DNA of 33,579 nucleotides from Lentisphaerota bacterium (GTDB lineage Bacteria > Verrucomicrobiota > Lentisphaeria > Victivallales > UBA1829): assembly GCA_015061845.1 (NCBI GenBank), contig SUVT01000020.1:1-33579 (forward strand), in the 5' to 3' direction. The translations under genes and the position numbers were made by a program. The notes under the pieces were generated by a model that ran no database searches, was not told the origin of the DNA, and saw only the letters and a program-made list of their open reading frames with translations. Numbering within the stretch: the first letter of the stretch is position 1; every line of letters starts with the position of its first letter. This document shows, in pieces, positions 9,863 to 27,730 of the stretch.

Positions 9863-9901
9863 AAAAAAAAATCAGGAAATCCGGTTTTCCTGATTTTTTT
9901 A
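9863..9901. terminator. bidirectional intrinsic terminator between convergent operons
   Basis: An A8 run, then the hairpin atcaggaaa / tttcctgat (9-bp stem, 6-nt loop), then a T7 run. It serves the plus operon ending at 9844 and the minus operon ending at 9916. Confidence 0.6.
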
Positions 9902-9915
9902 TGTTCAAACAATGA

Positions 9916-11484
9916 TCAATCTGAACTTTTTTCTTCCTGAATGACCCCGTTCAGCCGGGGTGCAAGTTTCGGGAAATTCTTCATGACCATCAACACGATC
10001 TCGCGTTTCATTGTTCCAAAGGGCGGAAGATGCATTCTTTCGACATCCTTGAACGAACGTGAATAGCGATCATGAGCCATCTGAGCAAGTTTCAAATGAG
10101 CTTCTCCTGCAGCGCTGTCATCATACGCAATATAAATCGCCGCAGTGTAAATCAAACCGCTGATCAGGTCATGGGCCTGCTTATAGGAACCATCCTTCAT
10201 ATCTTCTTCCCACTGGGAAACAATAAACTGTTCAAAGTTCAGGAACCGTTTATCATAGGAAACGCGTTCTTTCCGCATGATATTAAAGTATTCCCGTGCC
10301 TTCTTCTCCCTTCCGTAAGAATAAAGAATAACAATCGCATCGATCATATAGTTATCTAATGCACTCTTGAAAGAATGGGCGAAGTCATTGCGTTCAGCTG
10401 CAAGCAGGAATGATTCGCGGACTGCATCAGCCAGTTCCAGGTTCGGAACCATGATAAAGTCCTCACTGGGTGTTTTTTCCGGGAAGAGCATCCGTCCGCC
10501 AATGAAAGACTCTTTCAGGGACTGGGTGATCATACGGTCACATTCAATACTGAAACGGTTGGGACTGTACATGTTGCCAAGAGTTGCCCAGTAGATTGCA
10601 TGGGACTCAGAGGCACGCCAGTCAAGCTTGCCATACTTCTTATTGATCTCTATCACTACTTCCGGACGGATTTTATAATGGTCTCTGAGCCAGATCGCAC
10701 GCAGGAATGTTTCCAGTTCCAACGCCTCTTCATCAGACAAAGCCTCTTTCAAAGACTCAGGAAGCTGTCCAGTTTTCCGGAATGCACGGTTCAAAGATTC
10801 ATCGTCCCGATAACCGGCAGACTGAATTTTGTTCCAGAAAGAATTGGAAGAGTTCTTTCTGCGGAACTCAATAAATGACCTGGGAGCATTGTTCAAGGCT
10901 TCCCAATCAGGATCGGGCACACCGCCGAATGCGACCTGCATCTCTTTTGCAATCTGATACTTATAATATTTCTGGGCATCGTCCAGAGTATTTCCCATCT
11001 TGTGCTGATAGATCCACCCGAGCTGCTGATACAGTTTCGGGTCGTTGGCATTATAATTCAAGCCTTCATCACGGATGAGTTCGATCCCCCGCTGCACCCA
11101 TCTCCACCGGTCCTGCTTGTCCTGAAACGTAACTGAAATATTATACGACATATTCCAAGCAAGGAAGGATATCGCACCTGTAAACTTCGGCTGTAATTTT
11201 GTAATCCATGAAGCCAGCTGAACAAGTTCAAAGTATTTGCCTTCTTCCTGCAGAGTTCCGGCACGGAGCCAAAGCAAGTCTGCCAGAATTCCACGGAATC
11301 CACCAAGCGCAACTGTTGTAAATGCGACCATTGGCGGTAAACCTTTGTCATTGACAGCTTCATCGACCAGTTTTTCCTGGGTAATAATTTTATCCATTTT
11401 ATTCTGAATGGAGAGATTGATTCCCAGCAACACTCCGATTACAAGAAGCGCAAGAATCCATATTTTGAATTTTCTGAAACTCAT
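9916..11484 (-). CDS. N-terminally membrane-anchored helical (TPR-like?) hypothetical protein, last gene of the long minus-strand operon
   Basis: Single N-terminal TM (IWILALLVIGVLLGINL). About 500 extracytoplasmic, mostly helical residues with no recognisable catalytic motif. Lies 17 bp downstream of the ABC-2 permease. Confidence 0.45.
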   Translation of the reverse strand: MSFRKFKIWILALLVIGVLLGINLSIQNKMDKIITQEKLVDEAVNDKGLPPMVAFTTVALGGFRGILADLLWLRAGTLQEEGKYFELVQLASWITKLQPKFTGAISFLAWNMSYNISVTFQDKQDRWRWVQRGIELIRDEGLNYNANDPKLYQQLGWIYQHKMGNTLDDAQKYYKYQIAKEMQVAFGGVPDPDWEALNNAPRSFIEFRRKNSSNSFWNKIQSAGYRDDESLNRAFRKTGQLPESLKEALSDEEALELETFLRAIWLRDHYKIRPEVVIEINKKYGKLDWRASESHAIYWATLGNMYSPNRFSIECDRMITQSLKESFIGGRMLFPEKTPSEDFIMVPNLELADAVRESFLLAAERNDFAHSFKSALDNYMIDAIVILYSYGREKKAREYFNIMRKERVSYDKRFLNFEQFIVSQWEEDMKDGSYKQAHDLISGLIYTAAIYIAYDDSAAGEAHLKLAQMAHDRYSRSFKDVERMHLPPFGTMKREIVLMVMKNFPKLAPRLNGVIQEEKSSD

Positions 11485-11501: not shown

Positions 11502-12989
11502 TTAACGTTTTACGGACGCTATGCCGAATTCACGTTTACTGTATATCCAGATACCAAGCAAGACAAGAGGAAGTCCCTTCAAGACAACTTGATAAAGGAT
11601 CACGGTTCCCATCATGGAAAGTTCAATCAATTCACCGTTCGCCACAAATTCAGACATTGAGAACTTCTGAACCGGAATCACAGCTGTTAAAAGAACCTGA
11701 CCGAAAATATATCCATACCGATCCATTGCCGGCATTGCGGCAACAGAATCATAATTCTTGATCGGGCTTTGGAGATACAGAGAAAACGCTCCATAAGCAA
11801 TATAACAAAGTGTAAAGAATATTGCGGTAGGCATGGAAAGGAAAGAAGCTGCTGAGAATGCAATCATGGTCACTACAAAAACACCGAGCCATTCCATAAA
11901 CACTGCACGGAGATAGTTATTGAAGAAACTGACCTCCTTGATCATAAGCTTCGGACCATCCTCCAACCGGAACTGAACAGGTTTTTGTGTAAGGTTGGTA
12001 AAGGTTACTTCCGCTTTTTTATCATGGATCATACGACCATCCGCATATTCAGACGGAAATTCCAGTTCATTTACAGATACGGTGAGATATTCCCCGATAC
12101 CATGATTCAGATAAGCGGCTCTGTAATCTTTCTTCGCATCTTGTCCGCTGCTATCCTTTGCCACATCGGATTTTACTTCAAAATGGTACAAACCGCCCCA
12201 GGCACCACTAACCCGTTCAGCAGTCTGAGATGTACTGTCGGTATAAATCCGGTAACGGATATAGAAGCTGCCTTTATAATCTTTCGGCAGATTTTCATAT
12301 ATCCAACGACGGGTGAGACCGGGTTTCACTTCAGAAAGACCGGCATAAACCTGCCGCTGGATTTCAGTCAGGATTTTCTTCTTCTGCTCTTCAGTATAAA
12401 CGTTATGAACAGGTTTTCCATCCGGACCTCTCTTTGCCATTTCTTCTTCATACCGCTTCTGTACCAAACCATTGATATCCGGAGCTTTCGGCATATAAAC
12501 GCGTCGTCCGGTCAGAAGTTCATTACTGATTTTATCCTGCTCGCGGCGGGCATTGGCAACCTCTTCCTTATTCTCCTTATCGGACACAATACCAGCCTTC
12601 TTGTACTGCCAGTTCACAAACCCATAGACAGCAAGAGAAGAAAGGAGAAGCAGAACGGTAAGAAGAAGCATGACTCCGGAAAATTTTCCGAGCCAGATAA
12701 CCGGTCTGGAAACCGGCTTGACCGCTATCATGTGAATCCGGTTATCTTCCAAATCCTGAGTCATCATCTGACACCCCAGCCAGATACCGGAAAGCATAAG
12801 CATCAATGAAATAAAGGAAAGACTGTATTCCAGAGAGACTTTGATAAATCCATAGGCAGAACCATCGCCTTTGATCGTGTTGGGGATAATAAGAATTCCC
12901 AGCAAGAGAATGACCAGCAAAAACTGAAACACATGAGAACGCAATGCGCCCCTGCATGTCAGCTTTACAATTGAGAAGTATGCAGACAT
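11502..12989 (-). CDS. ABC-2 family permease with a ~230-aa extracytoplasmic loop
   Basis: Three N-terminal and four C-terminal TM helices flank a large soluble loop. Lies 17 bp downstream of an ABC ATPase. Confidence 0.6.
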   Translation of the reverse strand: MSAYFSIVKLTCRGALRSHVFQFLLVILLLGILIIPNTIKGDGSAYGFIKVSLEYSLSFISLMLMLSGIWLGCQMMTQDLEDNRIHMIAVKPVSRPVIWLGKFSGVMLLLTVLLLLSSLAVYGFVNWQYKKAGIVSDKENKEEVANARREQDKISNELLTGRRVYMPKAPDINGLVQKRYEEEMAKRGPDGKPVHNVYTEEQKKKILTEIQRQVYAGLSEVKPGLTRRWIYENLPKDYKGSFYIRYRIYTDSTSQTAERVSGAWGGLYHFEVKSDVAKDSSGQDAKKDYRAAYLNHGIGEYLTVSVNELEFPSEYADGRMIHDKKAEVTFTNLTQKPVQFRLEDGPKLMIKEVSFFNNYLRAVFMEWLGVFVVTMIAFSAASFLSMPTAIFFTLCYIAYGAFSLYLQSPIKNYDSVAAMPAMDRYGYIFGQVLLTAVIPVQKFSMSEFVANGELIELSMMGTVILYQVVLKGLPLVLLGIWIYSKREFGIASVKR

Positions 12990-13006: not shown

Positions 13007-14155
13007 TTATTTCTTATCGTCACTGGAGAACAGATCGGAAAGTTTCTTGTTGGCTTCGTCCAACTGCTGCTGTACAGCTTCATCGACAGGAGTTTCCGGA
13101 ACTTCTTCTTTTTCTTCCAGATCACTCAACATCTTCTGACTCTGCTCTGTCAAAACAGGAGCTGTCGGTTCAGGGACTTCTTCCACCGGTTCAGGTTCAA
13201 CTCCGGCAAGCCGGTCAAGTTTTGCCTTGCCTGTTTCAGAAATATCGCCATCAACGAGATAACTTGCGATTTCACCGCCGGAAGTTGCTCCGGAAGTAGA
13301 AATGCTTTCTTTCTTAGCATCATCCACAACATTGAGGAAGAAGTCTTCCAGCGTACGATGCGGGTGATCAATGGTAATTTCAGCATCTGTATTTTCGCGG
13401 ATAACAGCCTGAATTTTTTCCATGGCTTCCGGCGGAAGATCAGGAATGGTGATCCGGCTGGAAGTTTTCACGGAAAGCAGTTCTTCCATGGAACCTTCTG
13501 CACGGATCTTACCTCCGTAAAGAATGATCACACGGTCACAAACATCTTCCACATCGCTGAGAAGGTGACTTGTCACAAGGACAGTTTTTCCTCTGCGTTT
13601 CAGAAGAAGGATCAGATCTTTCACTTCACGGCAACCGATCGGGTCAAGTCCGCTGGTAGGTTCGTCCAGAATCAGAAACGCAGGGTCATTGATCATTGCC
13701 TGAGCAAGTCCGATACGGCGAGCCATACCTTTGGAAAACTCTCCGACCCGGCGGTTTGCAGCATGAGAGAGCCCAACCATGTCGAGCAGCTGCTCTGTAC
13801 GGGTTTTACGTTCCTTGGCGGAAAGTCCGAACAGAGAACCGAAGAAATCCAGTGTTTCGTAAGCTGTAAGATACTTGTAAAGATACGTTTCTTCAGGAAG
13901 ATAACCGATCATCCGTTTTGCATCAACACTGCGGGGAGATGTTCCGAAAACGCTCAAACGTCCACCTGTGGGGTAAAGCAGACCAAGCAGCATCTTCACT
14001 GTGGTGGATTTCCCGGATCCGTTCGGACCGAGAAGACCAAGGACTTCGCCCTCTCTGACTTCAAAATCAATATCATTGACGGCTTTAGCTTTGGGGCGGT
14101 TCCAGAAATCACGGAACTCTTTGACAAGTCCGACTGCTTCAACTACATTTGCCAT
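13007..14155 (-). CDS. ABC transporter ATP-binding protein with an acidic Pro/Glu-rich ~150-aa C-terminal tail
   Basis: Walker A GPNGSGKST, signature FSKGMARR, Walker B LILDEPTSGLD, H-loop TSHLL. The tail contains EPEPVEEVPEPTAPV...EEKEEVPETPVDE. GGAG RBS about 9 nt upstream, 26 bp after the P-type ATPase stop. Confidence 0.85.
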   Translation of the reverse strand: MANVVEAVGLVKEFRDFWNRPKAKAVNDIDFEVREGEVLGLLGPNGSGKSTTVKMLLGLLYPTGGRLSVFGTSPRSVDAKRMIGYLPEETYLYKYLTAYETLDFFGSLFGLSAKERKTRTEQLLDMVGLSHAANRRVGEFSKGMARRIGLAQAMINDPAFLILDEPTSGLDPIGCREVKDLILLLKRRGKTVLVTSHLLSDVEDVCDRVIILYGGKIRAEGSMEELLSVKTSSRITIPDLPPEAMEKIQAVIRENTDAEITIDHPHRTLEDFFLNVVDDAKKESISTSGATSGGEIASYLVDGDISETGKAKLDRLAGVEPEPVEEVPEPTAPVLTEQSQKMLSDLEEKEEVPETPVDEAVQQQLDEANKKLSDLFSSDDKK

Positions 14156-14181: not shown

Positions 14182-16131
14182 TTATTTGGTCTGTTCCTGC
14201 TGCGATTCTGCAAGCGTGATATTCTCGCCTGTACGGACAAGACGTGCACTGTTAAAGATGACGATCAATGTACTGACCGTATGGAAAATTGCCGCAACAA
14301 CAGGGGTCAATTCTCCAAAGACAGACAGGATGATACCGCCGACGACGAAAATCATACCGAACGCAAGGTTCTGGCTGATCACTGAAGACATCTTCTTGGA
14401 AAGAGCGATCAACAGGGGAATACGGCGCAAGTCATTGTTCATTAATGCAATGGATGCACTGTTGATTGCAATGTCACTGCCGATTGCACGCATTGCAATA
14501 CTCAGGTTACCGGCAGCAAGCGCAGGAGCATCGTTCACACCATCCCCGACAAATGCAACCAGAGAGTCTTTCTTGACATTTTCAACATATTCCACTTTAC
14601 CTTCCGGCAGGCAGTCGCCCTGGAAATCATCAATACCGAGTGTCTTGGCAACTTCGCTTGCAACTGCAGCACGGTCACCGGTAACCATTGCACACTGACG
14701 GATTCCGGCAGCCTTCAATTCTTTGATCGTTTCAGCTGCTTCCGGACGGATCTTGTCACGGAAACCAAGCATACCCATCAATTTACCATTGCGGGCAATT
14801 CCGACAACACTCATGCCGATCACTTCTGTTTCATCCTGATCGATCACGATTCCCTGCTCAGCCATCCACTTTGTACGACCGACAACACAGGGGGCTCCGC
14901 CAATATTTGCGGTAACACCTTTTCCGTGAACTTCTTCATAATCAGTGCCTTCCGTCACCTTGATACCGACTTCTTTTGCAAGACGGAGGATCGCAAGAGC
15001 GGTCGGGTGGTTACTGCGGGATTCAACAGAGGCTGCAACCAGAAGCAATTCTGCCGGTTCAACACCTTCTACAGGACGGATCTTGGCAACAGCCAATTCA
15101 CCTTCTGTAAGAGTACCGGTTTTGTCAAACACAAATGTCTTGATCTTGGATGCAAGTTCCAGGTGGGTGATGTTCTTGATCAGAATACCGAGACGTGCTG
15201 CTGCAGCAACGGCTGCAACGACAGCGGTCGGAGTTGCAAGAACAACTGCACAGGGACATGCAATAACAAGCAGCGTGATCACACGGTTCATGTCTCCATC
15301 GGAGAACCACCAGGTGAGCATGGCAAGCATCAGGATCGTGGGGGTATAGAACGCTGCATATTTATCAATAAGACGAACGATTGGGCTCTTGCTGGACTCA
15401 GCGGCAAGAATCATTTCTTTCACTTTACCGAGGGTGGTATCATCACCGATCTTGGTGACACGGACTTCGATACCACCGGAAAGGTTCTGGGTACCGGCAT
15501 AAACTTCATCGCCAACAGCCTTATCAACAGGGAGAGATTCCCCGGTAATGGATGCCTGGTTCACCGCACTCTGACCTTCGATGATCTCACCATCGACCGG
15601 GAAGTTTTCACCGGGACGGACACTGATGACATCACCGATAGAAAGTTCAGCAGCTTCCACATCGGTGTAAGTACCGTCAGCATTCTTTTTATGGGCATCG
15701 TGAGGAGTCAACCGGAGGAGTTCTTCGATAGAACGCTGCGCTCCGGAAGCTGTTCTTGTTTCAATGATGATCGTGATCAGCAGGAAGAAAGAAATGATCC
15801 CTGCTTCACGGAATTCCTGTCCGGCAAATGCTGCAAGAATTGCAAGTGCAACGAGTTCATTCATATAAACCCGTCCGACACAAAGGTCTCTGACAGCAGC
15901 AATAAAGATCGGCAATGCCAGAACAATTGCCCCGATCACAGCACTGACTTCAGATGCGAAGGGCTGTTCCGGAAAGAACCATTCCAAAAGGAAAGAGTTC
16001 AAAACCAGGAAACCACCGACCGCAGCGAACGCAGCGCGCCCCATGCTGCGACCATGTCCGCGACCTTCGGACATCAATTCGCCGTTTTTGGCATCTTCTG
16101 TATGGTCATGTCCGCAGATACATACGCTCAT
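14182..16131 (-). CDS. P1B-type heavy-metal-translocating ATPase (CPC motif), no HMA domain, His/Cys-rich N-terminus
   Basis: DKTGTLT phosphorylation site, GDGVNDAPALA, TM CPC motif (IACPCAVVLATP), TGES-like ITGESLP. The N-terminus MSVCICGHDHTED is a short metal-binding tag. The start overlaps the stop of the upstream SPFH gene by 4 nt. Confidence 0.85.
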   Translation of the reverse strand: MSVCICGHDHTEDAKNGELMSEGRGHGRSMGRAAFAAVGGFLVLNSFLLEWFFPEQPFASEVSAVIGAIVLALPIFIAAVRDLCVGRVYMNELVALAILAAFAGQEFREAGIISFFLLITIIIETRTASGAQRSIEELLRLTPHDAHKKNADGTYTDVEAAELSIGDVISVRPGENFPVDGEIIEGQSAVNQASITGESLPVDKAVGDEVYAGTQNLSGGIEVRVTKIGDDTTLGKVKEMILAAESSKSPIVRLIDKYAAFYTPTILMLAMLTWWFSDGDMNRVITLLVIACPCAVVLATPTAVVAAVAAAARLGILIKNITHLELASKIKTFVFDKTGTLTEGELAVAKIRPVEGVEPAELLLVAASVESRSNHPTALAILRLAKEVGIKVTEGTDYEEVHGKGVTANIGGAPCVVGRTKWMAEQGIVIDQDETEVIGMSVVGIARNGKLMGMLGFRDKIRPEAAETIKELKAAGIRQCAMVTGDRAAVASEVAKTLGIDDFQGDCLPEGKVEYVENVKKDSLVAFVGDGVNDAPALAAGNLSIAMRAIGSDIAINSASIALMNNDLRRIPLLIALSKKMSSVISQNLAFGMIFVVGGIILSVFGELTPVVAAIFHTVSTLIVIFNSARLVRTGENITLAESQQEQTK

Positions 16132-17303
16132 TTTGCGGCCTCCTTACTCTTTTGAATAACGTTTTTGTCTGTCTTCGGTTCAGGATTGAGCTTCAGACGG
16201 ATTTCCTGTTTTCCGGATCCCAGAGAATTGACAACAAATTTATCGTTGACCTGTGCAAAGGCATCTGAAACTGCCTGCGTGAAGAGATCTACGATAACAG
16301 AGGACGGATTTTCCTGATACTTCGGCAAAAGCATCTTGAAGTAATTGGCATCGGCAGCCACTTCAGAAACAACTTTTGCACTGTAGTTCTCAGCTTCTGA
16401 AATCAGCACATTCTTTTCTGATTCTGCTGCAGCTTTCTGCTTGGAAGCATAAGCTCTTGCTTTGTCCTCTTCTGATTTTGCTTTTGTTTCAGCAGAAGTG
16501 ACTTCGTTGAACGCATTAATGGTTTGCGGAGGAGGACTCTTCACGCCCAGACTGACCGTCTCGACAGTGATACCGATCTTCAAGTCTGCAATCTGCTTTT
16601 TCACCAAGCGTTCCACTTCCATGCGGTACTCATTGGTTTTCTTGAAGATGATATCATTCACGTCCCACTTTGCAGTGACCTGCAGGACTGCGTTATCCAA
16701 CACATTCCGGAGCAGAGTTTTCGGTCCGCGAGTCCCGATTTCTTCCCCTTTATCATTCTTGAAAACGGTATCCGCTTCAGCCGGGACATCAGGCGTCATG
16801 CAGGTTTCATAATAACGTTTGGGAGCAGAGATTCTGTATGTCATACTCCAGGAGGTATGAATCACGCAGGCATCTGCAGTAATGAGATAACCATCAACGC
16901 CCGGAATCAGGGTTTCACCACCTTGAGGATTATTCTTCCGGTCTGTGATCAATTTTTCATTTGCAGGCATAAAAGTATTGCTTGTAATAGTCTGCGGGGT
17001 TGTCGGAATTTCAATGATCTTGCTGACGGGGAACGGGAACACCCAGTGCCAATCATCAGTGTAAAGCTCTTTGAATTTACCAAACTGCGTAACGATCACA
17101 GCAGTATCAGGACGGACTGTAAAGAAACCGCTGAACGTAAAGAACCAGATCAGCAGAATCAATATCAAGCTTGAAAGCAGGATAAACACCGCCTTCAAAC
17201 TCTTGACAAGCATATCCATTCCGGATGAAAAAACGCCATCACCCGAAACGTTTGTTGCTTCTGTCAATTCTTTATTTTCATTTTCCATTGTAGAATTCTC
17301 CAT
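16128..17303 (-). CDS. SPFH/band-7 protein, HflK-like
   Basis: N-terminal TM, SPFH core (TVRPDTAVIVTQFGKF...), C-terminal coiled coil rich in A/E/K. GGAG RBS. Lies 8 bp after the previous SPFH gene. Its stop overlaps the ATPase start. Confidence 0.7.
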   Translation of the reverse strand: MENSTMENENKELTEATNVSGDGVFSSGMDMLVKSLKAVFILLSSLILILLIWFFTFSGFFTVRPDTAVIVTQFGKFKELYTDDWHWVFPFPVSKIIEIPTTPQTITSNTFMPANEKLITDRKNNPQGGETLIPGVDGYLITADACVIHTSWSMTYRISAPKRYYETCMTPDVPAEADTVFKNDKGEEIGTRGPKTLLRNVLDNAVLQVTAKWDVNDIIFKKTNEYRMEVERLVKKQIADLKIGITVETVSLGVKSPPPQTINAFNEVTSAETKAKSEEDKARAYASKQKAAAESEKNVLISEAENYSAKVVSEVAADANYFKMLLPKYQENPSSVIVDLFTQAVSDAFAQVNDKFVVNSLGSGKQEIRLKLNPEPKTDKNVIQKSKEAAK

Positions 17304-17311
17304 CGGAAAGG

Positions 17312-18364
17312 TTATTTTTTCTTTGCTTCACCGTTGGAGGCAGAAGGCTTTTCACCGGATTTCTCAACTTCAGAGCTGAGAGAGTCGCCCAGCTTCAGAA
17401 TATCAAACGGCGCACAATTGGTATCGAGAATCAGGGTTGTCCGTTTTCCCATCAACCGTTTCATTGATTCCAATTTCCGGAGGAACATTGCAAGCTGAGG
17501 ATCAGCTTTGAATTCTGCGTAGTATTTGGCAGCAGCAGAGTCACCTTCTGCTCGGATCTTCTTCGCTTCTGCTTCCGCATTGGTCAGTGTATTGGTATAA
17601 TCATTGTCGGCTTTGGTCATGATCTCTTTTGCTTTGACTTCTCCCTGACTCTTGTATTTTTCTGCTTCGGTCTTACGTTCGGAAATCATGCGCTCTGCAA
17701 TTGCTTTTGCAGGTTCATCAGGCACACCGATGGTCCGGATGTTCACAGAAACGACTTCAAGCCCCCACTGTTCAAAAGCGGGAGGTGCAATCATTTCAAT
17801 CATTTCAGATTCCATATCACTGATTTTGATTTTGTCAGGATCGGAATTCACCAACTGATTGAATTCATACTTACCGATAATTGCACCTTTCGCAGAACGC
17901 ATAAGGATCCCAAGCTGATCTTCTGCAGTTGCAATGCTTCCACCGGCACTCTGGAATTTGATCAAATCTTTGATACGGAAAACGGTATAGATGGAAACAG
18001 TGATATTTTTTCCATCGCTGGTGGGAGTTTCTTCCAGCTTTCCAATATTTCCATCATAGCATCTGAGACGGGTATCGTACTTCATCACTTTCTGAATCGG
18101 ATAGGGCCAGCGGAAATGCAATCCGGGCTGTCTGACGACAGGATCGATTTTTCCCAGTGTAATAACAACAGCACGTTCCGTTGTCGGCACCTGATAAGAG
18201 AAGATTGCAATCAGAAAGATAATTGCCACAGCAAAGCCCAATAACATGATAGGGACATTGACATGCTTCTTCTTTGTTTCTGTTACCTTGTGATCGTGTT
18301 CATGCTCACATTTGCAATCTTTGTGATCATGATCATGATTGTGACCGCAGCAAGTTTCGGACAT
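17312..18364 (-). CDS. SPFH/band-7 protein, HflC-like, with a His/Cys-rich N-terminal metal-binding tag
   Basis: N-terminus MSETCCGHNHDHDHKDCKCEHEHDHK, then a TM helix and an SPFH domain (ERAVVITLGKIDPVV...HFRWPYPIQKV). HflC-like C-terminus (AEGDSAAAKYYAEFKADPQLAMFLRKLESM). Confidence 0.7.
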   Translation of the reverse strand: MSETCCGHNHDHDHKDCKCEHEHDHKVTETKKKHVNVPIMLLGFAVAIIFLIAIFSYQVPTTERAVVITLGKIDPVVRQPGLHFRWPYPIQKVMKYDTRLRCYDGNIGKLEETPTSDGKNITVSIYTVFRIKDLIKFQSAGGSIATAEDQLGILMRSAKGAIIGKYEFNQLVNSDPDKIKISDMESEMIEMIAPPAFEQWGLEVVSVNIRTIGVPDEPAKAIAERMISERKTEAEKYKSQGEVKAKEIMTKADNDYTNTLTNAEAEAKKIRAEGDSAAAKYYAEFKADPQLAMFLRKLESMKRLMGKRTTLILDTNCAPFDILKLGDSLSSEVEKSGEKPSASNGEAKKK

Positions 18365-18401
18365 TTTTCAAACTCCTGTATTTATGTTATTTTTTGTTTT
18401 T

Positions 18402-20363
18402 TCAGTTGATGTTACCGCCAAGATCAGCATCAAGGAGATCAAGCCGCGGTTTTTCTTCGGCATTGAGTTCCAGAATTTGATACGGGATCGTTGCGGATAA
18501 GATATATTTTCTCAAGTCGGCACAATCATTTTCAAGGAAAGAAAGATATGTGCGGAGCTTGAACATTGAGGGCATCGCTTTGTATGCAGCAAGCTTGCTC
18601 TGGAATTCACGGGCATCATATTCAGAGACCGTGGTACGTTTGTATTTGTAAGTATCAGCTTCCTGCTTGATCTGCATTTCTTTAACCTTGGCAGAAGCAT
18701 CTTTTTCAAGTTTGTATGTCTCAGCCTTTTCGATTTCGGTTTCCATCTTCTGTTCCGCAATGAAAACGCCCTGGAATGCAGCAGCAACATCCTTGACAGG
18801 AGGATGTGTTCCATTCAAATCGACGCTGAGGATCGTAACACCAAGATTCCATTCATCAGCACGTTTCTGAATGCGTTCAGTAAGGTTCTTCGTAATCTCT
18901 TTACGACCTTCCGCCAAGTCACGGTTAAAATCAGTACTTGCAAAATAAATTGTTGCTTCCTGGGTTCCGAGATCAAGCAGAGCCTGATCAACATTACGGT
19001 AATTCAGGAAATAATCCATGACCTTATCTTTATTGACTTTATAAGTCACAGGAAGCACAGCATTGAGCATAGATACGGCATTTCCAAGATCCTGACTGGA
19101 TCCGCTGTTCTTATCCGTTTTCTGCGCTGAACTGCTGTTTGCCACAAGGAAAGGCATTTCACCTTCTTCATGTTCTTTTGTCCAGAGAATCGTTTTCAAA
19201 GGAGCTTTCTCAGGCTGAGCTTTCGTGTCTTTTTTCGCTTCAACACCAATTGTTACAACACGGGGTTCATCGATCTTGATCCGGGAGATCTTGTCGCAGG
19301 GCCACGGAAGTTTGAAATAGAGACCGGGCTGAAGAGGTTCGGAAGAGACAAGCTTACCGAACCGGGTCTTGATTCCGACTTCTCCGGGTCCTACTTCCCC
19401 GATACATGTGAAAAGCCAGAAAACGACGAGCCAGACAAAAATTGCCGGGAGAGCGACTTTACAGAACTTCTGGAACAACCAGGTTCCGGAAACCTTAAAC
19501 CCGAACTGATAGTCAAGTGTATTTGCAATATTTTTCGCGACACTGCCCGGATCAATAAAGATCGCAAGAATACGGCTTTCATGTACCGGACGGTCTTCCA
19601 CTTGTGTTCTGGGACGATAGAATTCAGCGACGAAGCTGAAAATAAATTCCGCGCCGAGAATTGCCAATACAACAAAAACGACCTTTGCGATCGGGAGATC
19701 CCAACCCGGATTTTTATAATGAAGAGCAACAGCAGAAACAGCTGCCAGCAACCAAACAAAAGCTCCGGCAACAAACCAGGCTCCAATGGGACGCAGCCAG
19801 CGGAATTCATTCATCCGGCTCTGACCGGACAGAAACATCCCGGTGAAAAGTGCTACTGCAGCAGAAATCACACATACAAAAGCCAAAACCATCGGATTCT
19901 TCGGAGCGGGCAGCCCGACTGCGCCATAAGCTGCCGGTGTACCGTAGGCTTTGAGCAAGGAAAGGGCAACAAAAAGCAAAGCAATGATACAGAAAACCTG
20001 CGGAGCCTTTTTCAAATAATTGGCAAAGGTCCGTCCTGCGGTAAAACGAACATCTTCAGAGACATCCATAATACTGTGAAGAGACTCTTTCCGCTTCTTC
20101 AACAGTTCTTTTTCATACTCTTCTTCAGCTGCATTTCCGGACAGCAATCCGTAAAATATTGCAGCAACGCTGAAAATGACAGCAACACCAAAGGGAATCA
20201 CTCCCATAGTAAATGTCCCAATACCGCTCCAGCCATTACCATAACTGGCGATCAAAGCCAATATGGTAAAAAACAGAGACTCAATAAGAGCAAGAATTGC
20301 AAGTTTCATTGCAATTTTAGATCTCTCACTGCTTCCAGCATAATTTTTAATTCCGTCAGCCAT
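18402..20363 (-). CDS. polytopic membrane protein (~8 TM, ~300 aa) fused to a C-terminal SPFH/HflK-like domain
   Basis: AGGAG RBS. N-terminal half made of hydrophobic helices. C-terminal half GEVGIKTRFGKLVSSEPLQPGLYFKLPWP... then a coiled coil. First gene of the operon. Confidence 0.65.
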   Translation of the reverse strand: MADGIKNYAGSSERSKIAMKLAILALIESLFFTILALIASYGNGWSGIGTFTMGVIPFGVAVIFSVAAIFYGLLSGNAAEEEYEKELLKKRKESLHSIMDVSEDVRFTAGRTFANYLKKAPQVFCIIALLFVALSLLKAYGTPAAYGAVGLPAPKNPMVLAFVCVISAAVALFTGMFLSGQSRMNEFRWLRPIGAWFVAGAFVWLLAAVSAVALHYKNPGWDLPIAKVVFVVLAILGAEFIFSFVAEFYRPRTQVEDRPVHESRILAIFIDPGSVAKNIANTLDYQFGFKVSGTWLFQKFCKVALPAIFVWLVVFWLFTCIGEVGPGEVGIKTRFGKLVSSEPLQPGLYFKLPWPCDKISRIKIDEPRVVTIGVEAKKDTKAQPEKAPLKTILWTKEHEEGEMPFLVANSSSAQKTDKNSGSSQDLGNAVSMLNAVLPVTYKVNKDKVMDYFLNYRNVDQALLDLGTQEATIYFASTDFNRDLAEGRKEITKNLTERIQKRADEWNLGVTILSVDLNGTHPPVKDVAAAFQGVFIAEQKMETEIEKAETYKLEKDASAKVKEMQIKQEADTYKYKRTTVSEYDAREFQSKLAAYKAMPSMFKLRTYLSFLENDCADLRKYILSATIPYQILELNAEEKPRLDLLDADLGGNIN

Positions 20364-20459: not shown

Positions 20460-20488
20460 AAAATACACCATAAAATACTATTTGTCAA
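20460..20488 (-). promoter_or_regulatory. putative sigma70 promoter for the SPFH/ATPase/ABC operon
   Basis: On the minus strand: perfect TTGACA (complement of 20483-20488), 17-nt spacer, TATTTT (complement of 20460-20465). About 95 nt upstream of the ATG at 20363, in a 179-bp AT-rich gap. Confidence 0.3.
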
Positions 20489-20542: not shown

Positions 20543-21124
20543 TCATTTAGGACGAAATGCGATATGAGGAACGGTTCTGCCGACTGCAAGCCAGTCCAAT
20601 TCAAACTCCGTTTTATATGTTGAAACATCTGCCAACGCATCGTCCGGCAATTGCTCAAAAAGCTCTGACTTTTCAATATTTTCCAAAGTGGCATTCATAT
20701 ACCGGGGATCATCCGTTGCAAAATGCAAAACACCATCCGGTTTCAGAATCCGCCGGAGTGACATCATAAATTCGGAAGACATCAGGCGGTTTCCTTTGTG
20801 TTTATGCTTCGGCCAGGGATCCGGACAGAGTATATGAATTCTGTCAAGGCAGCCATCCGGCAGGATCCTGCCTGTCAAATGCCGTCCCTCCACACGAAGA
20901 AGTTCCAGATTGTTCAAACCGGCACGTTTTCCCATTTTTTCAACTTTTCTCAATCTGCCAAGCATCACATCAGCAGCAAGAACAAGCGTTTCCGGATTGT
21001 CAGTTGCCAGTTTTATGGAAAAACCGCCGCTTCCGCATCCGAGATCAAGCTCTACCCGTTTCCACGGACTGACATCAATCACATCACACAAACGGCAATC
21101 AACTGCATTCAAAAGGTGAATCAT
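20543..21124 (-). CDS. trmB: tRNA (guanine46-N7)-methyltransferase
   Basis: SAM-binding motif VELDLGCGSGGF and the TrmB signature ILCPDPWPKHKHKGNRL. 193 aa. Its start overlaps the upstream gene stop (TAATG). Confidence 0.8.
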   Translation of the reverse strand: MIHLLNAVDCRLCDVIDVSPWKRVELDLGCGSGGFSIKLATDNPETLVLAADVMLGRLRKVEKMGKRAGLNNLELLRVEGRHLTGRILPDGCLDRIHILCPDPWPKHKHKGNRLMSSEFMMSLRRILKPDGVLHFATDDPRYMNATLENIEKSELFEQLPDDALADVSTYKTEFELDWLAVGRTVPHIAFRPK

Positions 21125-22230
21125 TATATATCTCCTGCAGGGTCTTTTGTCAAAATTTCAAATATCTTATCAGGAATGACATAATACCATCCCTCGTGTC
21201 CATCCAAAAACTTCTTCATACGGTTCATATCGACATCATCTCCACCTTTTTCAGCAGAAACTTTACAAACAACACATCCTTGTGCTTTCTCTGCCTTGTA
21301 AAATGTCAATTTCCGGATAAAACCTGTACTGTCTTTTGTGATAAGTTCTCCCAGTAAAGTCAATTTCCCGGTATCTTTTCCCCGCACGCCCTCAAAAATA
21401 TACCCCTGAGCAAGGTATTTAAACAGAGTTCCAAGATTCCGGGCGGGAACCAGAAGATTATCGCCGGGGATCCAACTCTGGAAAGGATCTTTTTCGTTAA
21501 AACGACCGATCAACCAGCTTGGAGTATATTTCGTTTTTGAAATATATTCAATGCGCACCAATTTATTGATATCATCAAAAACAGGACAGCTCATCCAGCG
21601 TCCGGGTCCGGGATGAAGATCTTCAAAGACGGTCGATACCAAAACCGGAACAACGGAACCATTGTTCTGAACAATTCCGACCCATCGCCCGCTGATTTCC
21701 GGTCTGCTGCCGGGCATTACCTGTTCCGGCTCATTGAAATGAACGCCTCCGAATACCAAATCCCGTAAGCATTTTTTGTTTTTATCAAACATCTGGACCC
21801 TGATTCCGGTACTTTTTCCGGAAGATCCCTGAATATTCACCGCGAGTTTTGAGCAGGTCTTATCATCAGCGGGAATTGCTTTCCGCAAGGGGCGGAGTTT
21901 TTGAAGCCGTTCAATAAAACGGACGACTTTATCTGTATCAGCTTTATGATAATCTCTTTCTTTGATATACCAAACGCCATTTTTTAAAGTCAAAGTAGTT
22001 TTATGCTCTCCCATTGAAACAACAATCTCAGCAGGTTCATCCAACGCAAAATTCTGCAAAAGATTTTTCATGGAAAGATTTGCTTTTTCTTTTTTATTTT
22101 TCTCTGACTTATAAGCAAAGAAAGCAACAAATATAAAGAGAAGGCAAATCACACATTTCAGGATGAATGACCGGTTCTGCCAGAGAAAATCTGCCGATTT
22201 TTTCAGAATAAACAATATTTTCTGCTTCAT
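21124..22230 (-). CDS. DUF4340-like protein (GldG-associated accessory protein)
   Basis: N-terminal TM anchor, then HKTTLTLKNGVWYIKERDYHKADTDKVVRFIERLQKL, which resembles DUF4340 proteins found downstream of GldG-type genes. Overlaps the upstream gene by 4 nt. Confidence 0.45.
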   Translation of the reverse strand: MKQKILFILKKSADFLWQNRSFILKCVICLLFIFVAFFAYKSEKNKKEKANLSMKNLLQNFALDEPAEIVVSMGEHKTTLTLKNGVWYIKERDYHKADTDKVVRFIERLQKLRPLRKAIPADDKTCSKLAVNIQGSSGKSTGIRVQMFDKNKKCLRDLVFGGVHFNEPEQVMPGSRPEISGRWVGIVQNNGSVVPVLVSTVFEDLHPGPGRWMSCPVFDDINKLVRIEYISKTKYTPSWLIGRFNEKDPFQSWIPGDNLLVPARNLGTLFKYLAQGYIFEGVRGKDTGKLTLLGELITKDSTGFIRKLTFYKAEKAQGCVVCKVSAEKGGDDVDMNRMKKFLDGHEGWYYVIPDKIFEILTKDPAGDI

Positions 22231-24875
22231 GACTTATTCCTCCTTGTCATAAGACTGTGCCGGACCAATGCATAGATGATCCCAAGCAAAGCAACGATAC
22301 CGGGCACAACAAGAAGATTTATAACCTTGATTTTCGTCTCAAACTGTTCTATCTCTGAACGGAAAGAATGAGAAAGAGCCTTAATCTCCCGCTCTGCTTC
22401 TTTCAGTTTTTGAGATTCAGATTCGATCTCATTCATTAAACTTACAGAAGGCTGTGTTCTCAACTTTTTCTTCATTTCTGTCAAACGTTTATTCGAGTCA
22501 ATAAACTTACGTTCCGCTTTCAAAAGTTTATCCCGGTAACGGAGCTCCGCTTCTGCTTTTATCTCAGTGAACCGGGTTAACGGACGGCTCATGGGAATAC
22601 GGCTGCGGACCTGAGCCAGAGATTTCTGATTTGTCAATTGTTCAGCAACATTCTGAATCAAAGAGACATTATCATTGAATCGGCTGAATATCTGCTGACC
22701 GGTGACATCCGGCTTCTTCTGTACACAGGCACTGTTAAACAAAATATCGGAATCTGCGAAAAGATAGATTTTACTTTTCTTTTCTGATCTCTTGAGGATT
22801 TTTGTGCCCGGTTGAAGAGCGGTAGGATCCGGAGCCCCATTCGGGAAAGCAGTTTCAAAGGAACCTTCCAGACGGACCGCAAGAGGATACTCTTTTTTAT
22901 GAGCCTTGAATTTCCGTCTGATCCAATCCTCGGAGCTGATTTGATCTCTGTGGAAATAAGCAGATTCAGACGTTGTTGAAAGCAAGATCTTACTTTCGAT
23001 TCCGGGGAGCTTATTCACTCTGAAAAGACCGGAATAAGGCATAAATACAGATTTCAGGAGAGCTGTTTCCGGAACATCCTTATTAAAACCAGCAGGCTGC
23101 AAACTCAAAAGCATCGGTCTCATATCATATCGGTTCTGCTGGGCCTGACGGTATGCAAAATTCATGTCAGCAACAACATATTCCTTCCTGTAGGAGACAC
23201 CCCATGCGCTGAAAAGATCGGAACAATCTGAAGAGAGATGATTCATCATATTGATATCACGCTTCTTTGTTCCGGAGGCATAATTGGAGTAAGGATCAAC
23301 AAAAACAGCCAGATTTCCACCGCGGAGAACAAACTGATCTAACGCAAAAAGTGTTCTCTGATGAAAACCGGATGGATGGATCACCATCACAGCATTGATA
23401 TCAGCCGGTATTTCAGTGGCATCCGCAGGAAGTTGAACAACTTCATAATCCTTCCGCAAATCAGAAATAATATACCATGGCGGAGTGATTTCCATAACAG
23501 GATTCTGGAGCTGCCGGAAACGGGTTGATAAATCCGGAGCGGTTCCGAACACAGGAAGGGAAGAAATAATTCCCAGTTTGGGGCGTTCCTTGCGGGAAAC
23601 ATTTTGGACGATTCGGAGGATCTCATATTCCAACTGAGCATCGTGCAGAGGTGTCAGATATGCAATTTTCTGGGATTTATCTCCATGAGATGCAGAAATT
23701 CCAAGAAAATACCGTTCTCCGGAAAGATCCTGCATCGCTGTACAACCATCAATTGCAGCAGCTTCTTCGTGAACCGGATCTGTCGCCGGATCGATGATCT
23801 CCAAAACGATCTTTCCATTGGAAGCAGATTCAAACTCTCTCAACAGCCATTCAACACGGTCAGCATACTTTTTCAGATAAGGAACCATGGCTTTGCTGGA
23901 ACGGGAAGCATAAAAACGAACCAGAACAACACCGTCAAGGTCTGCAGCGACCTGTTTAGAAACAGGGGAAATGGAATAAGCCTGATCATGACTGACATCC
24001 AGTCGATACTTCCAGGTATTTCCAATAATAAACATTGAGATACAGACCAGGAGGATCCAGGTAAAACGCAGAACAAATTTTCCCAACGCATTGCGGCTGG
24101 CACGGTTCTTCAAAATTCCGGAAGAAAAAAGTCCACTCGGAACTGCGGCGGCGAACTCCAATGTAAACCATGTCAAAGCAAGGAAAAACAGAGAAAGTGA
24201 AACGGCATAAACCAGTTCAGAAGTATCGATCAAGCCTTTCTGAAAAGCCTGACAATTGGAAAGGAATGAACAGGCTGCGATTTTATCTACAATGTCCTGC
24301 GGGATCCAAAGGGCGAGCAATTCTGTAACTTTCGGCCATCCGGCGAACAGGAAAAAACCGCAAACAAAAACTGATAACAGAAAACTGGCTGTTTGGCTCT
24401 TGGTCACAGCCGAACAGAAAGAAGCGATGGATAGATAGGCACATCCGAGCAATAACGCTCCGGCATACCCGCAAAGGATCGCTCCGATATCAGGTTCCCC
24501 GAGAACAATGGCTGTCACAGGAACAGAAAAAGTCAGAAGAAGTGCAACGAACAATAAAATCGTCCCTGCAATAAACTTCCCGAAAACCATTTCCCATGGA
24601 GATGCCGGGAATGAAAGAGTTAACTCAAAGACCCCCAAGCGGCGTTCTTCTGACCACATAGGCATTGCCAAAGCCGGTACGATCAACATGAAAAGCCAGG
24701 GCATCCAGTCGAAGAACGGGGCTAAATCAGCCTGACCGGAAGCATAAATCCCGCTGGCAACAAATGCACAAAAGGATGATAAAACAAGGAATATAACGAG
24801 GAAAACCCATGCAGCGGGAGAAGCCAACGCAAGGGATAATTCTTTCCGGATCAAAGCAGAAAAACGTCTCAGCAT
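22227..24875 (-). CDS. fused ABC-2 permease (GldF-like) / GldG-like auxiliary protein, 882 aa
   Basis: About 250 N-terminal residues with 6 TM helices (ABC-2 permease). Then a large extracytoplasmic GldG-like region (ABC-type uncharacterised transport system), a coiled coil and a C-terminal TM anchor (VVPGIVALLGIIYALV). Overlaps the upstream ATPase by 7 nt. Confidence 0.6.
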   Translation of the reverse strand: MLRRFSALIRKELSLALASPAAWVFLVIFLVLSSFCAFVASGIYASGQADLAPFFDWMPWLFMLIVPALAMPMWSEERRLGVFELTLSFPASPWEMVFGKFIAGTILLFVALLLTFSVPVTAIVLGEPDIGAILCGYAGALLLGCAYLSIASFCSAVTKSQTASFLLSVFVCGFFLFAGWPKVTELLALWIPQDIVDKIAACSFLSNCQAFQKGLIDTSELVYAVSLSLFFLALTWFTLEFAAAVPSGLFSSGILKNRASRNALGKFVLRFTWILLVCISMFIIGNTWKYRLDVSHDQAYSISPVSKQVAADLDGVVLVRFYASRSSKAMVPYLKKYADRVEWLLREFESASNGKIVLEIIDPATDPVHEEAAAIDGCTAMQDLSGERYFLGISASHGDKSQKIAYLTPLHDAQLEYEILRIVQNVSRKERPKLGIISSLPVFGTAPDLSTRFRQLQNPVMEITPPWYIISDLRKDYEVVQLPADATEIPADINAVMVIHPSGFHQRTLFALDQFVLRGGNLAVFVDPYSNYASGTKKRDINMMNHLSSDCSDLFSAWGVSYRKEYVVADMNFAYRQAQQNRYDMRPMLLSLQPAGFNKDVPETALLKSVFMPYSGLFRVNKLPGIESKILLSTTSESAYFHRDQISSEDWIRRKFKAHKKEYPLAVRLEGSFETAFPNGAPDPTALQPGTKILKRSEKKSKIYLFADSDILFNSACVQKKPDVTGQQIFSRFNDNVSLIQNVAEQLTNQKSLAQVRSRIPMSRPLTRFTEIKAEAELRYRDKLLKAERKFIDSNKRLTEMKKKLRTQPSVSLMNEIESESQKLKEAEREIKALSHSFRSEIEQFETKIKVINLLVVPGIVALLGIIYALVRHSLMTRRNKS

Positions 24876-25813
24876 GTTTCCTCTCCCTCATTATTTCCAA
24901 GAAGTGCAAAGACATCAGAAAGATCAGCATGAAGGATATCACACTCAAGAATATTTATTTTCTGTGCGGCAGCAAAATTCATTGCCGAGGCGGCGAGTGT
25001 CTTTTCCTTACCCGGAGCAGGTCTCAACTTAATAGAAGTTACGCCATCTTTTTTCGTAATTGAAAATGATGCGGCATCTTTGAAAAATTTAAAAACAGAA
25101 AGATCAGCATTTGCCTCTGTAGTCAGAACAACAGCTCCTTCATCAGGAGAAAGCCCACGGAATTCAGCTGCACTGCCATTGAATACCGCCCTGCCCCGCC
25201 GGATTGCAAGAACATGATCACAAACAGCTCCGATCTCTTCCAGGATGTGTGTTGATACGATGATCGCAGTTGTCTCTTTCAAATCTTCAATCAAAGAACG
25301 GATCTCTCTTTTCTGGTCAGGATCAAGCCCGTCTGTAGGCTCGTCAAGCACAAGATTTTCCGGAGAATGAATCAACGCCTGAGCAAGGCAGACGCGCCGG
25401 CGGAACCCTTTGGAAAGAGCTTCCACATCCATCCGCAGGACTTCATCCAAACGGCAGATTTCAACAACCCGGTTATAAGCGAGTCTCAATTTCTTTCCAC
25501 TCAATCCGCGCATTCTTCCGCAGAATTTGAGGAAAGCTGCCACACTCATACCGGAATAAAGCGGAGCGTTTTCGGGGAGATACCCCAAAACTTCCTTTGC
25601 CTGAACAGGATTCTTCAGCATATTGATACCGGAAACTGTCACTTCTCCGGAATCCGGCGGAAAAATACCGCAGATAATTTTCATCGCAGTTGATTTTCCC
25701 GCCCCGTTCGGTCCGATAAAACCAAGAACAGAACCGGTTGATACTTCCAGATCCAGATTATTCAGGACTTTATTCTTCCCGTAAGATTTATTGAGCTTGT
25801 CCGCTGAAATCAT
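24869..25813 (-). CDS. ABC transporter ATP-binding protein (GldA-like, ABC-2 exporter type)
   Basis: Walker A GPNGAGKST, signature LSKGFRRR, Walker B LVLDEPTDGLD, H-loop STHIL. Confidence 0.85.
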   Translation of the reverse strand: MISADKLNKSYGKNKVLNNLDLEVSTGSVLGFIGPNGAGKSTAMKIICGIFPPDSGEVTVSGINMLKNPVQAKEVLGYLPENAPLYSGMSVAAFLKFCGRMRGLSGKKLRLAYNRVVEICRLDEVLRMDVEALSKGFRRRVCLAQALIHSPENLVLDEPTDGLDPDQKREIRSLIEDLKETTAIIVSTHILEEIGAVCDHVLAIRRGRAVFNGSAAEFRGLSPDEGAVVLTTEANADLSVFKFFKDAASFSITKKDGVTSIKLRPAPGKEKTLAASAMNFAAAQKINILECDILHADLSDVFALLGNNEGEETC

Positions 25814-27133: not shown

Positions 27134-27730
27134 TTGAAACGCAGTTTGACGACAGACAGTAAGTTATTGGGACAGTTGGCAGCTGAAGATGAGCAGGCAT
27201 GGAGCGAATTCCATTCAAAATACAGAAAAATGATCTGTTCTATCGGTAAAAAACGCGGTATTTCTCCCGATGAGACGGAAGATCTTATTCAGGAAGTTAT
27301 GCTGATTTGCTGCCGACGGATCAAGGAATTTACATACGACAGGGAGAAAGGACATTTCCGTTCCTATCTTACAGCAATTATACATAATGTGTCGTGGCAG
27401 CTGCAGCGTAAAAGAAAAAATCCGCCTCCGGTGGATACGGAATATGATGACAGTATCGATAAACTTTTCATGGAGCAGTATGAAAAGTTTCTGATCAATG
27501 CCCTTATGAAAAAGCTGAAAGAGCGGGTCAACAGTCAAACCTTTTCAACTTTTGAAATGCTTTATATCCAGCAGCTTCCGGTAGAGGAGGTCTGTAAAAT
27601 CACAAGAAAAAGCCCCGGTGCGGTCTACCTGATCAAAATGAGATGCCTGCGAATCCTGCGTCAATGTATCGCAGAAATCCCGGAAGCAGCCGACCGGCTC
27701 GGAAGAGATAACTCCAGCAAAAATGCCTGA
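27134..27730 (+). CDS. ECF-type RNA polymerase sigma factor (sigma-70 regions 2 and 4)
   Basis: Region 2 DLIQEVMLICCRRIKEF...FRSYLTAIIHNVSWQLQRKR and region 4 HTH LPVEEVCKITRKSPGAVYLIKMRCLRILRQ. Likely a TTG start preceded by an AGAGGGA RBS. Its 3' end overlaps the convergent kinase gene by 70 nt. Confidence 0.7.
   Translation: MKRSLTTDSKLLGQLAAEDEQAWSEFHSKYRKMICSIGKKRGISPDETEDLIQEVMLICCRRIKEFTYDREKGHFRSYLTAIIHNVSWQLQRKRKNPPPVDTEYDDSIDKLFMEQYEKFLINALMKKLKERVNSQTFSTFEMLYIQQLPVEEVCKITRKSPGAVYLIKMRCLRILRQCIAEIPEAADRLGRDNSSKNA

Follow-up and report, generated by a model that had tools for sequence, protein, structure and literature searches.

Three HflK/HflC-like SPFH proteins share a conserved operon with a P1B-type ATPase and an ABC/TPR module in Lentisphaerota and related bacteria

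Cage structures have recently been obtained for HflK/C, flotillin, stomatin, prohibitin and erlin, and what bacterial SPFH cages contain besides the FtsH protease is an open question. Contig SUVT01000020.1 of a Lentisphaerota bacterium (assembly GCA_015061845.1), of which positions 1 to 33,579 were analysed here (the window), raises this question anew, as it encodes three SPFH proteins (S1, S2 and S3) directly followed by a CPC-motif P-type ATPase (the pump). Reading of the DNA letters had led to the proposal of an SPFH scaffold or cage dedicated to a metal efflux pump (the original prediction). According to the analysis presented here the four genes belong to a larger cassette, in which an HflK/C-type scaffold or cage would organise a divalent-metal pump together with an ABC exporter as a dedicated SPFH-transporter platform, a reading for which the case appears evenly balanced.

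The four consecutive minus-strand open reading frames (ORFs) of the original prediction were recovered at the same coordinates (Table 1), the genes being separated by 37 nt and 8 nt and, at the last junction, overlapping by 4 nt. Its genes and gene order were correct but the unit was incomplete, since the genes of an ABC ATPase, an ABC-2-like permease and a TPR-like protein had been missed. The same-strand run extends three genes past the pump to position 9916, the intergenic gaps being 26, 17 and 17 nt. Based on the spacing of all seven genes, a promoter-like site upstream and a terminator-like hairpin downstream, the unit in the window is a seven-gene operon reaching from 20363 to 9916. The promoter-like site ahead of S1 is the best such site found. 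Coupling of the SPFH genes to the pump, as originally claimed, is supported by the ATGA overlap between the S3 stop and the pump start. A promoter and a terminator separating the pump from the SPFH genes had been named as evidence that would speak against the proposal; neither was found between them, and this objection thus falls away. No Rfam family, metal riboswitches included, was detected in the window or in six representative loci, and the 5' region gave no Rfam match even at E = 1.

The SPFH identity assumed for the three upstream genes holds, all three products passing the Pfam model Band_7 (PF01145; 55.1 bits for S1, 93.4 for S2 and 76.4 for S3, cut-off 23.6). Band_7 is the only Pfam domain assigned to S1, S2 and S3, and DUF1490 (PacL) was not found in them. 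Measured against the NCBIfam equivalog cut-offs (159.4 bits for TIGR01933, hflK; 134.4 bits for TIGR01932, hflC), S1 with 98.2 bits and S3 with 92.3 bits are nearest to HflK but under its cut-off. S2 lies above the cut-off of the HflC model with 149.8 bits and reaches 106.9 bits on the stricter model NF008259 (cut-off 427). Hydropathy analysis predicted a single transmembrane (TM) helix each in S2 and S3 and seven TM helices in S1 ahead of its SPFH domain, the Band_7 match spanning residues 324-550. Neither the cassette proteins nor the ORF preceding the flotillin-like gene of the window gave a match to NfeD.

The best PDB match of S1 is E. coli HflK, and the S1 model (pLDDT, the predicted local distance difference test, 72.5 overall and 85-94 across most TM helices) likewise follows HflK in its architecture, combining an SPFH domain with a helix of 85 residues and strands at the C-terminus. 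In a search of 1.84 billion representative proteins, S1 residues 1-320 were represented in at least 763 clusters at 50% identity. As nearly all of the clusters listed comprise proteins of 600-840 aa, the 7-TM domain is found only in fusion with SPFH. Glu239 in TM6, which is kept in all lineages, is the single charged residue conserved inside a TM helix, and the most conserved part of the domain is a cytoplasmic loop with the pattern YRP(R/K)...ESRxL...P...(D/E/N)YQFGx(K/R)x(S/T); both lie at residues ~239-295. The loop probably docks a partner. Since it is also present in loci devoid of the pump, the idea that it is specific to pump-containing cassettes was rejected.

In a fold search the modelled TM domain of S1 appeared similar in fold to the membrane domain of CDF/ZnT transporters. 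Members of this family are recognised by six TM helices and by the Asp/His metal site that lies in TM2 and TM5. As S1 lacks the CDF metal-site residues and has no sequence relationship to the family, its assignment as a CDF/ZnT/YiiP transporter was rejected, and the resemblance of the model may serve as a lead but does not indicate membership.

The fourth gene was confirmed to encode a CPC-type P1B ATPase overlapping the S3 stop codon (TIGR01525, 550.4 bits, cut-off 346). The protein carries the motifs DKTGT, TGES, HP, GDGVNDAP and CPC. Hydropathy analysis detected the segments before M1, M1/M2, M4 and M5/M6, and did not detect M3. An HMA domain was not detected by Pfam, and the short N-terminus contains Cys and His residues (CICGHDH in the window). 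The ion site of the window pump combines CPC in M4 with H-T-V-S-T in M6. A survey of 56 orthologues, 55 of them complete in this region, revealed the M4 motif xCPC(A)xxLAxP in 45 sequences, along with INQNLxxG in M5 and AAxLHxxS(T/S)LxVxFNSARL in M6.

In NCBIfam the pump scores above cut-off for the Cd-type as well as the Cu-type subfamily. It was compared with the residue patterns of the individual P1B subclasses. P1B-1 (Cu+) pumps are defined by CPC in M4, YN in M5 and MxxSS in M6; the window pump shares CPC, but YN aligns to FV and MSSVS to HTVST. In P1B-2 pumps (ZntA, Zn/Cd/Pb) a conserved Lys in M5 and DxG in M6 accompany CPC in M4. The cassette pumps have INQNLxxG without Lys in M5 and His at the position of the expected Asp in M6, and ZntA (4umv) is a weaker PDB match than CopA or sCoaT. 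The best match of the M5-M6 region is the P1B-4 pump sCoaT (7qbz), in which HEGST aligns to HTVST; with CPC instead of SPC in M4, and H-T-V-S-T compared with HEGxT in M6, the pump is P1B-4-like in M6 only. The hallmarks of P1B-6, SCA in M4 and N-X18-H-N-X-(S/T) between M5 and M6 (PMC13460109), were replaced by CPC, H-T-V-S-T and an Asn-to-His spacing of 28 residues. Judged by these motifs, the signature CPC plus HxxST fits no curated P1B subclass, and the substrate in the window organism is most likely a divalent transition metal (Zn, Co, Ni, Cd or Fe).

Three classes of ion site were distinguished among the cassette pumps. The window and most loci have CPC with the M6 His. Six loci from Lentisphaerales and some Verrucomicrobia have CP(I/V) with Gln in M6, five of the six with GDGVNDGP, and the third class has VPA with the M6 His, leaving no cysteine in the M4 site. 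The designation as a heavy metal pump is thus supported by the CPC/His site in the window but does not extend to every member of the family. The latter two classes are without His-rich tails on any subunit, which suggests that they move a different cation.

The product of the fifth gene matches ABC_tran with 112 bits and is DrrA/GldA-like, below the equivalog cut-offs. The ABC ATPases of the cassettes comprise 330-490 aa and carry a Pro/Glu-rich acidic extension past the nucleotide-binding domain, which is probably disordered. The permease gave weak matches to ABC2_membrane_3 and ABC2_membrane_2, below cut-off. The TPR-like protein, for which at least 3587 homologues were found, has one N-terminal TM helix according to hydropathy and many invariant polar residues. 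A PDB sequence search gave no match for the TPR-like protein or the permease, and a fold search with the model of the former returned generic TPR matches only and no functional lead. Like the SPFH domains, the large domain of the permease and the TPR-like protein are predicted, tentatively and less firmly, to face the periplasm. The cassette was also considered as an anti-phage defence system, an idea that was rejected as PADLOC gave only generic ABC matches.

The conservation of the arrangement was assessed by a genome scan with an S3 alignment of 12 sequences and one genome per species, which returned 63 loci. The ORFs of the loci were searched with the seven window proteins, and 69 non-redundant loci (L numbers below) were analysed. 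S3 homologues at 56, 44, 37, 30, 28 and 26% identity were all found in the same gene arrangement. The scan loci derive from Lentisphaeria (Victivallales and Lentisphaerales, including the isolate Lentisphaera marina), from Verrucomicrobiota (including Limisphaera isolates), from Kiritimatiellota and from Planctomycetota contigs labelled Phycisphaerae, Sedimentisphaerales or Pirellulales; one contig is labelled Armatimonadetes. The lineages span gut, groundwater, wastewater and marine habitats. The pump directly follows S3 in 61 of the 69 loci (61 of 68 evaluable), down to 23-30% identity of the SPFH genes, so that the arrangement is conserved in relatives as the original prediction required. 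Stop and start codons of S3 and pump overlap in 25 of the 61 adjacent pairs (21 of these 25 by the -4 overlap), and all seven genes are colinear in 36 of the 69 loci.

The composition of the cassette was counted in the 53 loci with at least 6.5 kb of downstream flank. Pump, ABC and TPR genes occur together in 34 of these, the pump alone in ten, and the ABC and TPR genes without the pump in five; two further loci contain pump and ABC, one contains pump and TPR (a fragmented assembly) and one neither. The SPFH trio is thus linked to the ABC-2/TPR module in 42 and to the pump in 47 of the 53 loci. The ABC ATPase gene is colinear with the cassette in most loci; the ABC module is divergent in L005 and convergent in L030. 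When the pairwise distances of S1, S2, S3 and the pump were compared as matrices over 52 loci, they correlated with r = 0.93-0.98, a pattern that fits inheritance of the four genes as a block.

The cassette also varies in its composition and surroundings. The loci without the pump (L067-L071, from marine Phycisphaerae and other metagenome-assembled genomes (MAGs) of Planctomycetota) are arranged S1-S2-S3-ABC, followed by a 683-aa permease and the TPR-like protein, and their S1 (723-816 aa) and S3 (~490-500 aa) are both enlarged. Two MAGs carry two cassettes each (L029/L030 in Lentisphaerae GWF2_49_21; L047/L051 in Verrucomicrobia OFTM167). One pair is 83-94% identical; the other, at 23-41%, suggests either old paralogous cassettes or bin contamination. 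An eighth gene encoding a second ABC-2-like permease of ~320 aa is located directly upstream of S1 in several loci (Table 1) and is absent from the window; it shares its strand with S1 in Verrucomicrobia and Lentisphaerales and is divergent in Phycisphaerae and Sedimentisphaerales. In the Victivallis clade, one Kiritimatiellota locus and one other Lentisphaeria locus a divergent gene for a Ser/Thr protein kinase of ~340 aa lies just upstream of S1, and in L043 a 922-aa kinase follows the trio in place of the pump. These kinase neighbours may represent a regulatory link.

A further line of evidence comes from the N-termini of S2, S3 and the pump, which are predicted to be cytoplasmic on the basis of the HflK/C topology and the positive-inside rule. 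In the clade of the window S2 starts with MSETCCGHNHDHDHKDCKCEHEHDHK, containing nine His and four Cys in 26 residues, and the pump has only the short CICGHDH. The tail is kept in the relatives L012 and L013, where indels occur only in multiples of 3 nt; together with an AGGAG ribosome-binding site 8 nt upstream of the S2 ATG this supports its translation. In the Phycisphaerae clade it is S3 that starts with such a stretch (MAHKHGHHHGHHHHHVGH), the pump having only MAHQHLH. In most other Victivallales loci the long His-rich stretch is found on the pump (e.g. HNHDEHHHEHGPGCACGHTHHHH), with SPFH tails that are plain. The stretch lies on S3 in L010, and shorter ones occur on S2 and S3 in L028. 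Where the pump has CP(I/V) with Gln or VPA, no subunit carries a His-rich tail. That the tail moves among the subunits and is lost together with the thiophilic site would be most simply explained if the N-termini meet at one place. At the level of sequence the wandering tails thus provide independent support for a functional link between the SPFH proteins and the pump.

Taken together, these features are consistent with the following model. The HflC-like S2 and the HflK-like S1 and S3 would form a hetero-oligomeric ring or cage of the HflK/C type with periplasmic SPFH domains and cytoplasmic N-termini, which would corral the pump, the ABC-2-type exporter and the TPR-like partner into one membrane platform. 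These clients would be held instead of FtsH, or in addition to it. S1 would add its family-specific 7-TM domain and the conserved cytoplasmic loop as a probable docking site. The pump would export a divalent transition metal, and the His/Cys-rich tail of S2 may act as an element for metal capture, hand-over or sensing beside the pump entrance, by analogy with the metal-binding motif of PacL1 that serves CtpC in Mycobacterium tuberculosis. The benefit to the cell might be detoxification or metal supply. Compared with the original prediction, the link between SPFH proteins and pump is retained and strengthened by the tails, but the pump is not the sole partner of the scaffold, as the ABC/TPR partner and the five planctomycete loci with trio and ABC/TPR genes but no pump demonstrate.

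Several points weigh against this model. The contacts among the cassette proteins, and with them the physical assembly and its stoichiometry, are predicted from the genes. The metal specificity assigned to the pump rests on motifs outside every curated P1B subclass. In view of the five pump-less loci and the ten with a pump and no ABC/TPR genes nearby, neither client is obligatory. Common descent of the species accounts for part of the distance correlations. The promoter and the terminator were called from consensus matches that occur at background frequency, the number of promoter-like sites in the region not exceeding shuffled expectation, and no metal-responsive regulator or riboswitch was found (for Rfam, in the window and the six representative loci). 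Finally, S2 clears the HflC equivalog threshold, so that the trio could be the ordinary FtsH modulator of the organism.

The last point leads to the alternative that the trio is the PVC (Planctomycetes-Verrucomicrobia-Chlamydiae) version of the canonical HflK/HflC modulator, its cage gating, as a form of quality control, the access of FtsH to the pump and the ABC exporter and controlling their turnover without any scaffolding. In addition to the HflC score of S2 and the HflK-like character of S1 and S3, the best relatives of known structure are E. coli HflK and HflC, some database records name S1 homologues "protease modulator HflK", and partner proteins protect other bacterial metal-ion transporters from degradation (PMC13460109). 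However, S1 and S3 stay below the HflK cut-off (98 and 92 vs 159.4 bits) and S2 below that of NF008259, three subunits of which one has a 7-TM extension do not make a K/C pair, and metal-binding tails on SPFH subunits are unexpected for a protease modulator. An FtsH-like ORF was not found in 74 loci of up to ~21 kb, i.e. within ~10 kb of the cassette. This is a weak argument, since hflKC and ftsH are not linked in E. coli either. On balance this alternative seems unlikely.

A second alternative regards the cassette as a device for biogenesis or metalation and not for detoxification, in which the pump would feed its cation under a closed periplasmic SPFH vault, and the ABC-2 exporter and the TPR-like protein would deliver or hold an ion-requiring substrate such as a peptide, a lipid or an apo-protein. 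The predicted periplasmic location of the SPFH domains and, more tentatively, of the permease domain and the TPR-like protein would agree with this, as would the invariant polar residues of the latter and the failure to find a metal-responsive regulator or riboswitch. The range of habitats looks like housekeeping rather than niche metal resistance, and the ion site varies by lineage while the rest of the cassette stays. However, the cassette neighbourhoods contain no conserved candidate for a metalloprotein or a biosynthetic enzyme, the His-rich cytoplasmic tails suit the capture of excess metal equally well, and the periplasmic side of the TPR-like protein and the permease domain is only tentative. 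We consider this alternative rather improbable. We are similarly doubtful about a related and more far-reaching scenario, in which the three-subunit cage would enclose a membrane patch with the pump and the ABC-2 exporter as a protein-walled periplasmic nano-compartment, into which, with the TPR-like protein as partner, metal and a second substrate would be pumped for storage, mineralisation or metalation. If true, this would be an HflK/C vault repurposed in PVC bacteria, and a bacterial SPFH cage with its clients written in its own operon.

Mere co-expression of independent membrane-homeostasis functions needed simultaneously, without a common complex, appears very improbable, for although either client module can be missing and the ABC module is not always colinear (L005, L030), 25 of 61 gene pairs overlap, different phyla share the gene order even at 23-30% identity, metal-binding tails swap places between the pump and the SPFH subunits, and the S1 family always retains the 7-TM domain and the loop.

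The cassette names genetically the candidate clients of a bacterial SPFH cage, namely a pump and an exporter, and as the link spans four phyla the question of the clients becomes directly testable. It further suggests that P1B pumps assisted by a scaffold ("effluxosomes") are not peculiar to mycobacteria, and such assemblies, here with true SPFH proteins and movable His-rich capture tails, may have originated independently. Furthermore, the cassette defines two large uncharacterised families, the 7-TM domain of S1 and the TPR-like protein. The view that an operon of an SPFH trio and a metal pump was undescribed stands with respect to the literature searched, in which no paper combined SPFH proteins with P-type or P1B pumps, metal efflux or ABC partners; a survey from 2009, which covers the families of prokaryotic SPFH proteins and the structure of their operons, does not contain the words "ATPase", "ABC" or "transporter".

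Table 1. Features of the window and of related loci. Coordinates without a locus number refer to the window.
Feature	Position	Strand	Description
S1	18402-20363	-	653 aa; 7-TM N-terminal domain fused to HflK-like SPFH domain
S2	17312-18364	-	350 aa; HflC-like SPFH protein, single N-terminal TM helix
His/Cys-rich N-terminal tail of S2	18284-18364	-	predicted cytoplasmic
S3	16128-17303	-	391 aa; HflK-like SPFH protein, single N-terminal TM helix
S3 stop/pump start overlap ATGA	16128-16131	-	AAGGAGG ribosome-binding site 8 nt upstream
P1B-type P-type ATPase (pump)	14182-16131	-	649 aa; E1-E2_ATPase and Hydrolase domains
ABC ATPase	13007-14155	-	382 aa; acidic C-terminal extension of ~130 aa
ABC-2-like permease	11502-12989	-	495 aa; 3 TM helices, ~230-aa extramembrane domain, further TM helices
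TPR-like protein	9916-11484	-	522 aa; membrane-anchored, all-helical, uncharacterised family
Promoter-like site TTGACA-17 nt-TATTTT	20460-20488	-	in 179-nt AT-rich spacer upstream of S1; consensus match only
Terminator-like hairpin	9865-9900	-	15 pairs and T run; 15 nt past seventh gene
Flotillin-like gene	1490-3175	+	Band_7 96.5 bits; FloT match 160 bits, below cut-off
TrmB-like methyltransferase	20543-21124		between second ABC set and cassette
Protein of unknown kind	21124-22230	-	368 aa; second ABC set
GldF-GldG fusion	22227-24875	-	second ABC set
GldA-like ATPase	24869-25813	-	second ABC set
Second ABC-2-like permease	L010 602-1564; L063 6361-7311; L052 5715-6677	+; +; -	eighth gene, upstream of S1
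Second ABC-2-like permease, further loci	L046, L049-L051, L058, L059, L062, L064, L066
Ser/Thr kinase near S1	L029 5851-6870; L043 5747-6757	-; -	divergent
Ser/Thr kinase near S1, further loci	L031, L032, L033, L034, L039
Pumps of divergent ion-site classes	L008, L009, L045; L051, L053, L058, L063, L064, L066

Elsewhere in the window, the flotillin placed by the original prediction at 1628-3175 is a real gene with Band_7 and Flot domains, but its longest ORF starts at a GTG at position 1490. With S1, S2 and S3 it makes up the four SPFH paralogues noted within 20 kb. The ORF upstream of it (717-1391, plus strand, 224 aa) has a secreted or lipoprotein-like look and no family match. A second, unrelated ABC set is located just upstream of the cassette (21124-25813, minus strand), and the minus-strand ORF at 27661-30558 encodes a protein of 965 aa whose N-terminal domain is a Ser/Thr kinase and whose C-terminal domain is FGE-sulfatase-like.

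Among known systems, the HflK/HflC-FtsH complex of E. coli (PDB 7vhp, 7wi3, 9cz2) is the best relative of S1, S2 and S3 in sequence and structure. Shared features are the single TM helix with cytoplasmic N-terminus (S2 and S3), the periplasmic SPFH domain, the long coiled-coil helix, the C-terminal strands and K-like and C-like paralogues encoded side by side. In contrast to the two-subunit K/C system the cassette has three subunits, one of them with seven TM helices, and in some lineages His-rich tails. In place of hflX and hfq its operon contains a P-type pump and an ABC/TPR module, with no ftsH nearby. The operons of stomatin or flotillin with NfeD, as well as eukaryotic stomatin, resemble the cassette in combining an SPFH oligomer with a dedicated operon partner or transport client, and a precedent exists in the solved structure of a stomatin assembly with bound aquaporin-1 (PDB 9zd2), which is among the fold matches listed for S1. 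The cassette differs from them in having no NfeD gene, in its SPFH proteins of the HflK/C type and in its putative clients, which are ATP-driven pumps encoded in the same operon.

With respect to the pump, the P1B-4 exporters of Co, Zn, Cd, Ni and Fe (sCoaT, 7qbz) share the aligned His and Ser-Thr of M6, the lack of an HMA domain and the short N-terminus, but differ in the M4 motif (SPC, here CPC) and in HEGxT, where the cassette pump has Thr-Val in place of Glu-Gly. A parallel, though only a conceptual one, is offered by the ferrosome (fez) clusters, which include a P1B-6 ATPase (bioRxiv 10.1101/2020.01.10.902569), in that a pump is encoded beside membrane proteins that form a compartment devoted to a metal. 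As far as the accessible part of that report goes, no accessory family is shared, and the cassette pump is without the P1B-6 hallmarks. In contrast to the ferrosome, a compartment formed by the cassette would, speculatively, be protein-walled and periplasmic.

The closest functional analogue appears to be the effluxosomes of Mycobacterium tuberculosis, in which PacL1-3 are associated with CtpC, CtpG and CtpV (PMC9374683, PMC13043812, PMC13460109). The PacL scaffolds are small DUF1490 proteins that are co-operonic with P1B pumps and needed for pump stability and clustering (PMC9374683, PMC13460109). They have no SPFH domain but a single TM helix, Glu/Ala repeats on the cytoplasmic side and, optionally, a His motif at the C-terminus, and the single flotillin of M. 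tuberculosis is dispensable for the effluxosome foci (PMC9374683, PMC13460109). Both systems have several scaffold paralogues, a scaffold gene in operon with the P1B gene and an optional cytoplasmic His-rich motif, the PacL1 motif DLHDHDH (PMC9374683) resembling the S2 tail GHNHDHDH...EHEHDH. The proposed role, stabilising or clustering of the pump, would also be the same. Unlike PacL, the cassette employs true SPFH proteins with periplasmic domains, carries its motif at the N-terminus and includes the ABC/TPR module, and the relationship of the two is thus best regarded as one of analogy, not homology.

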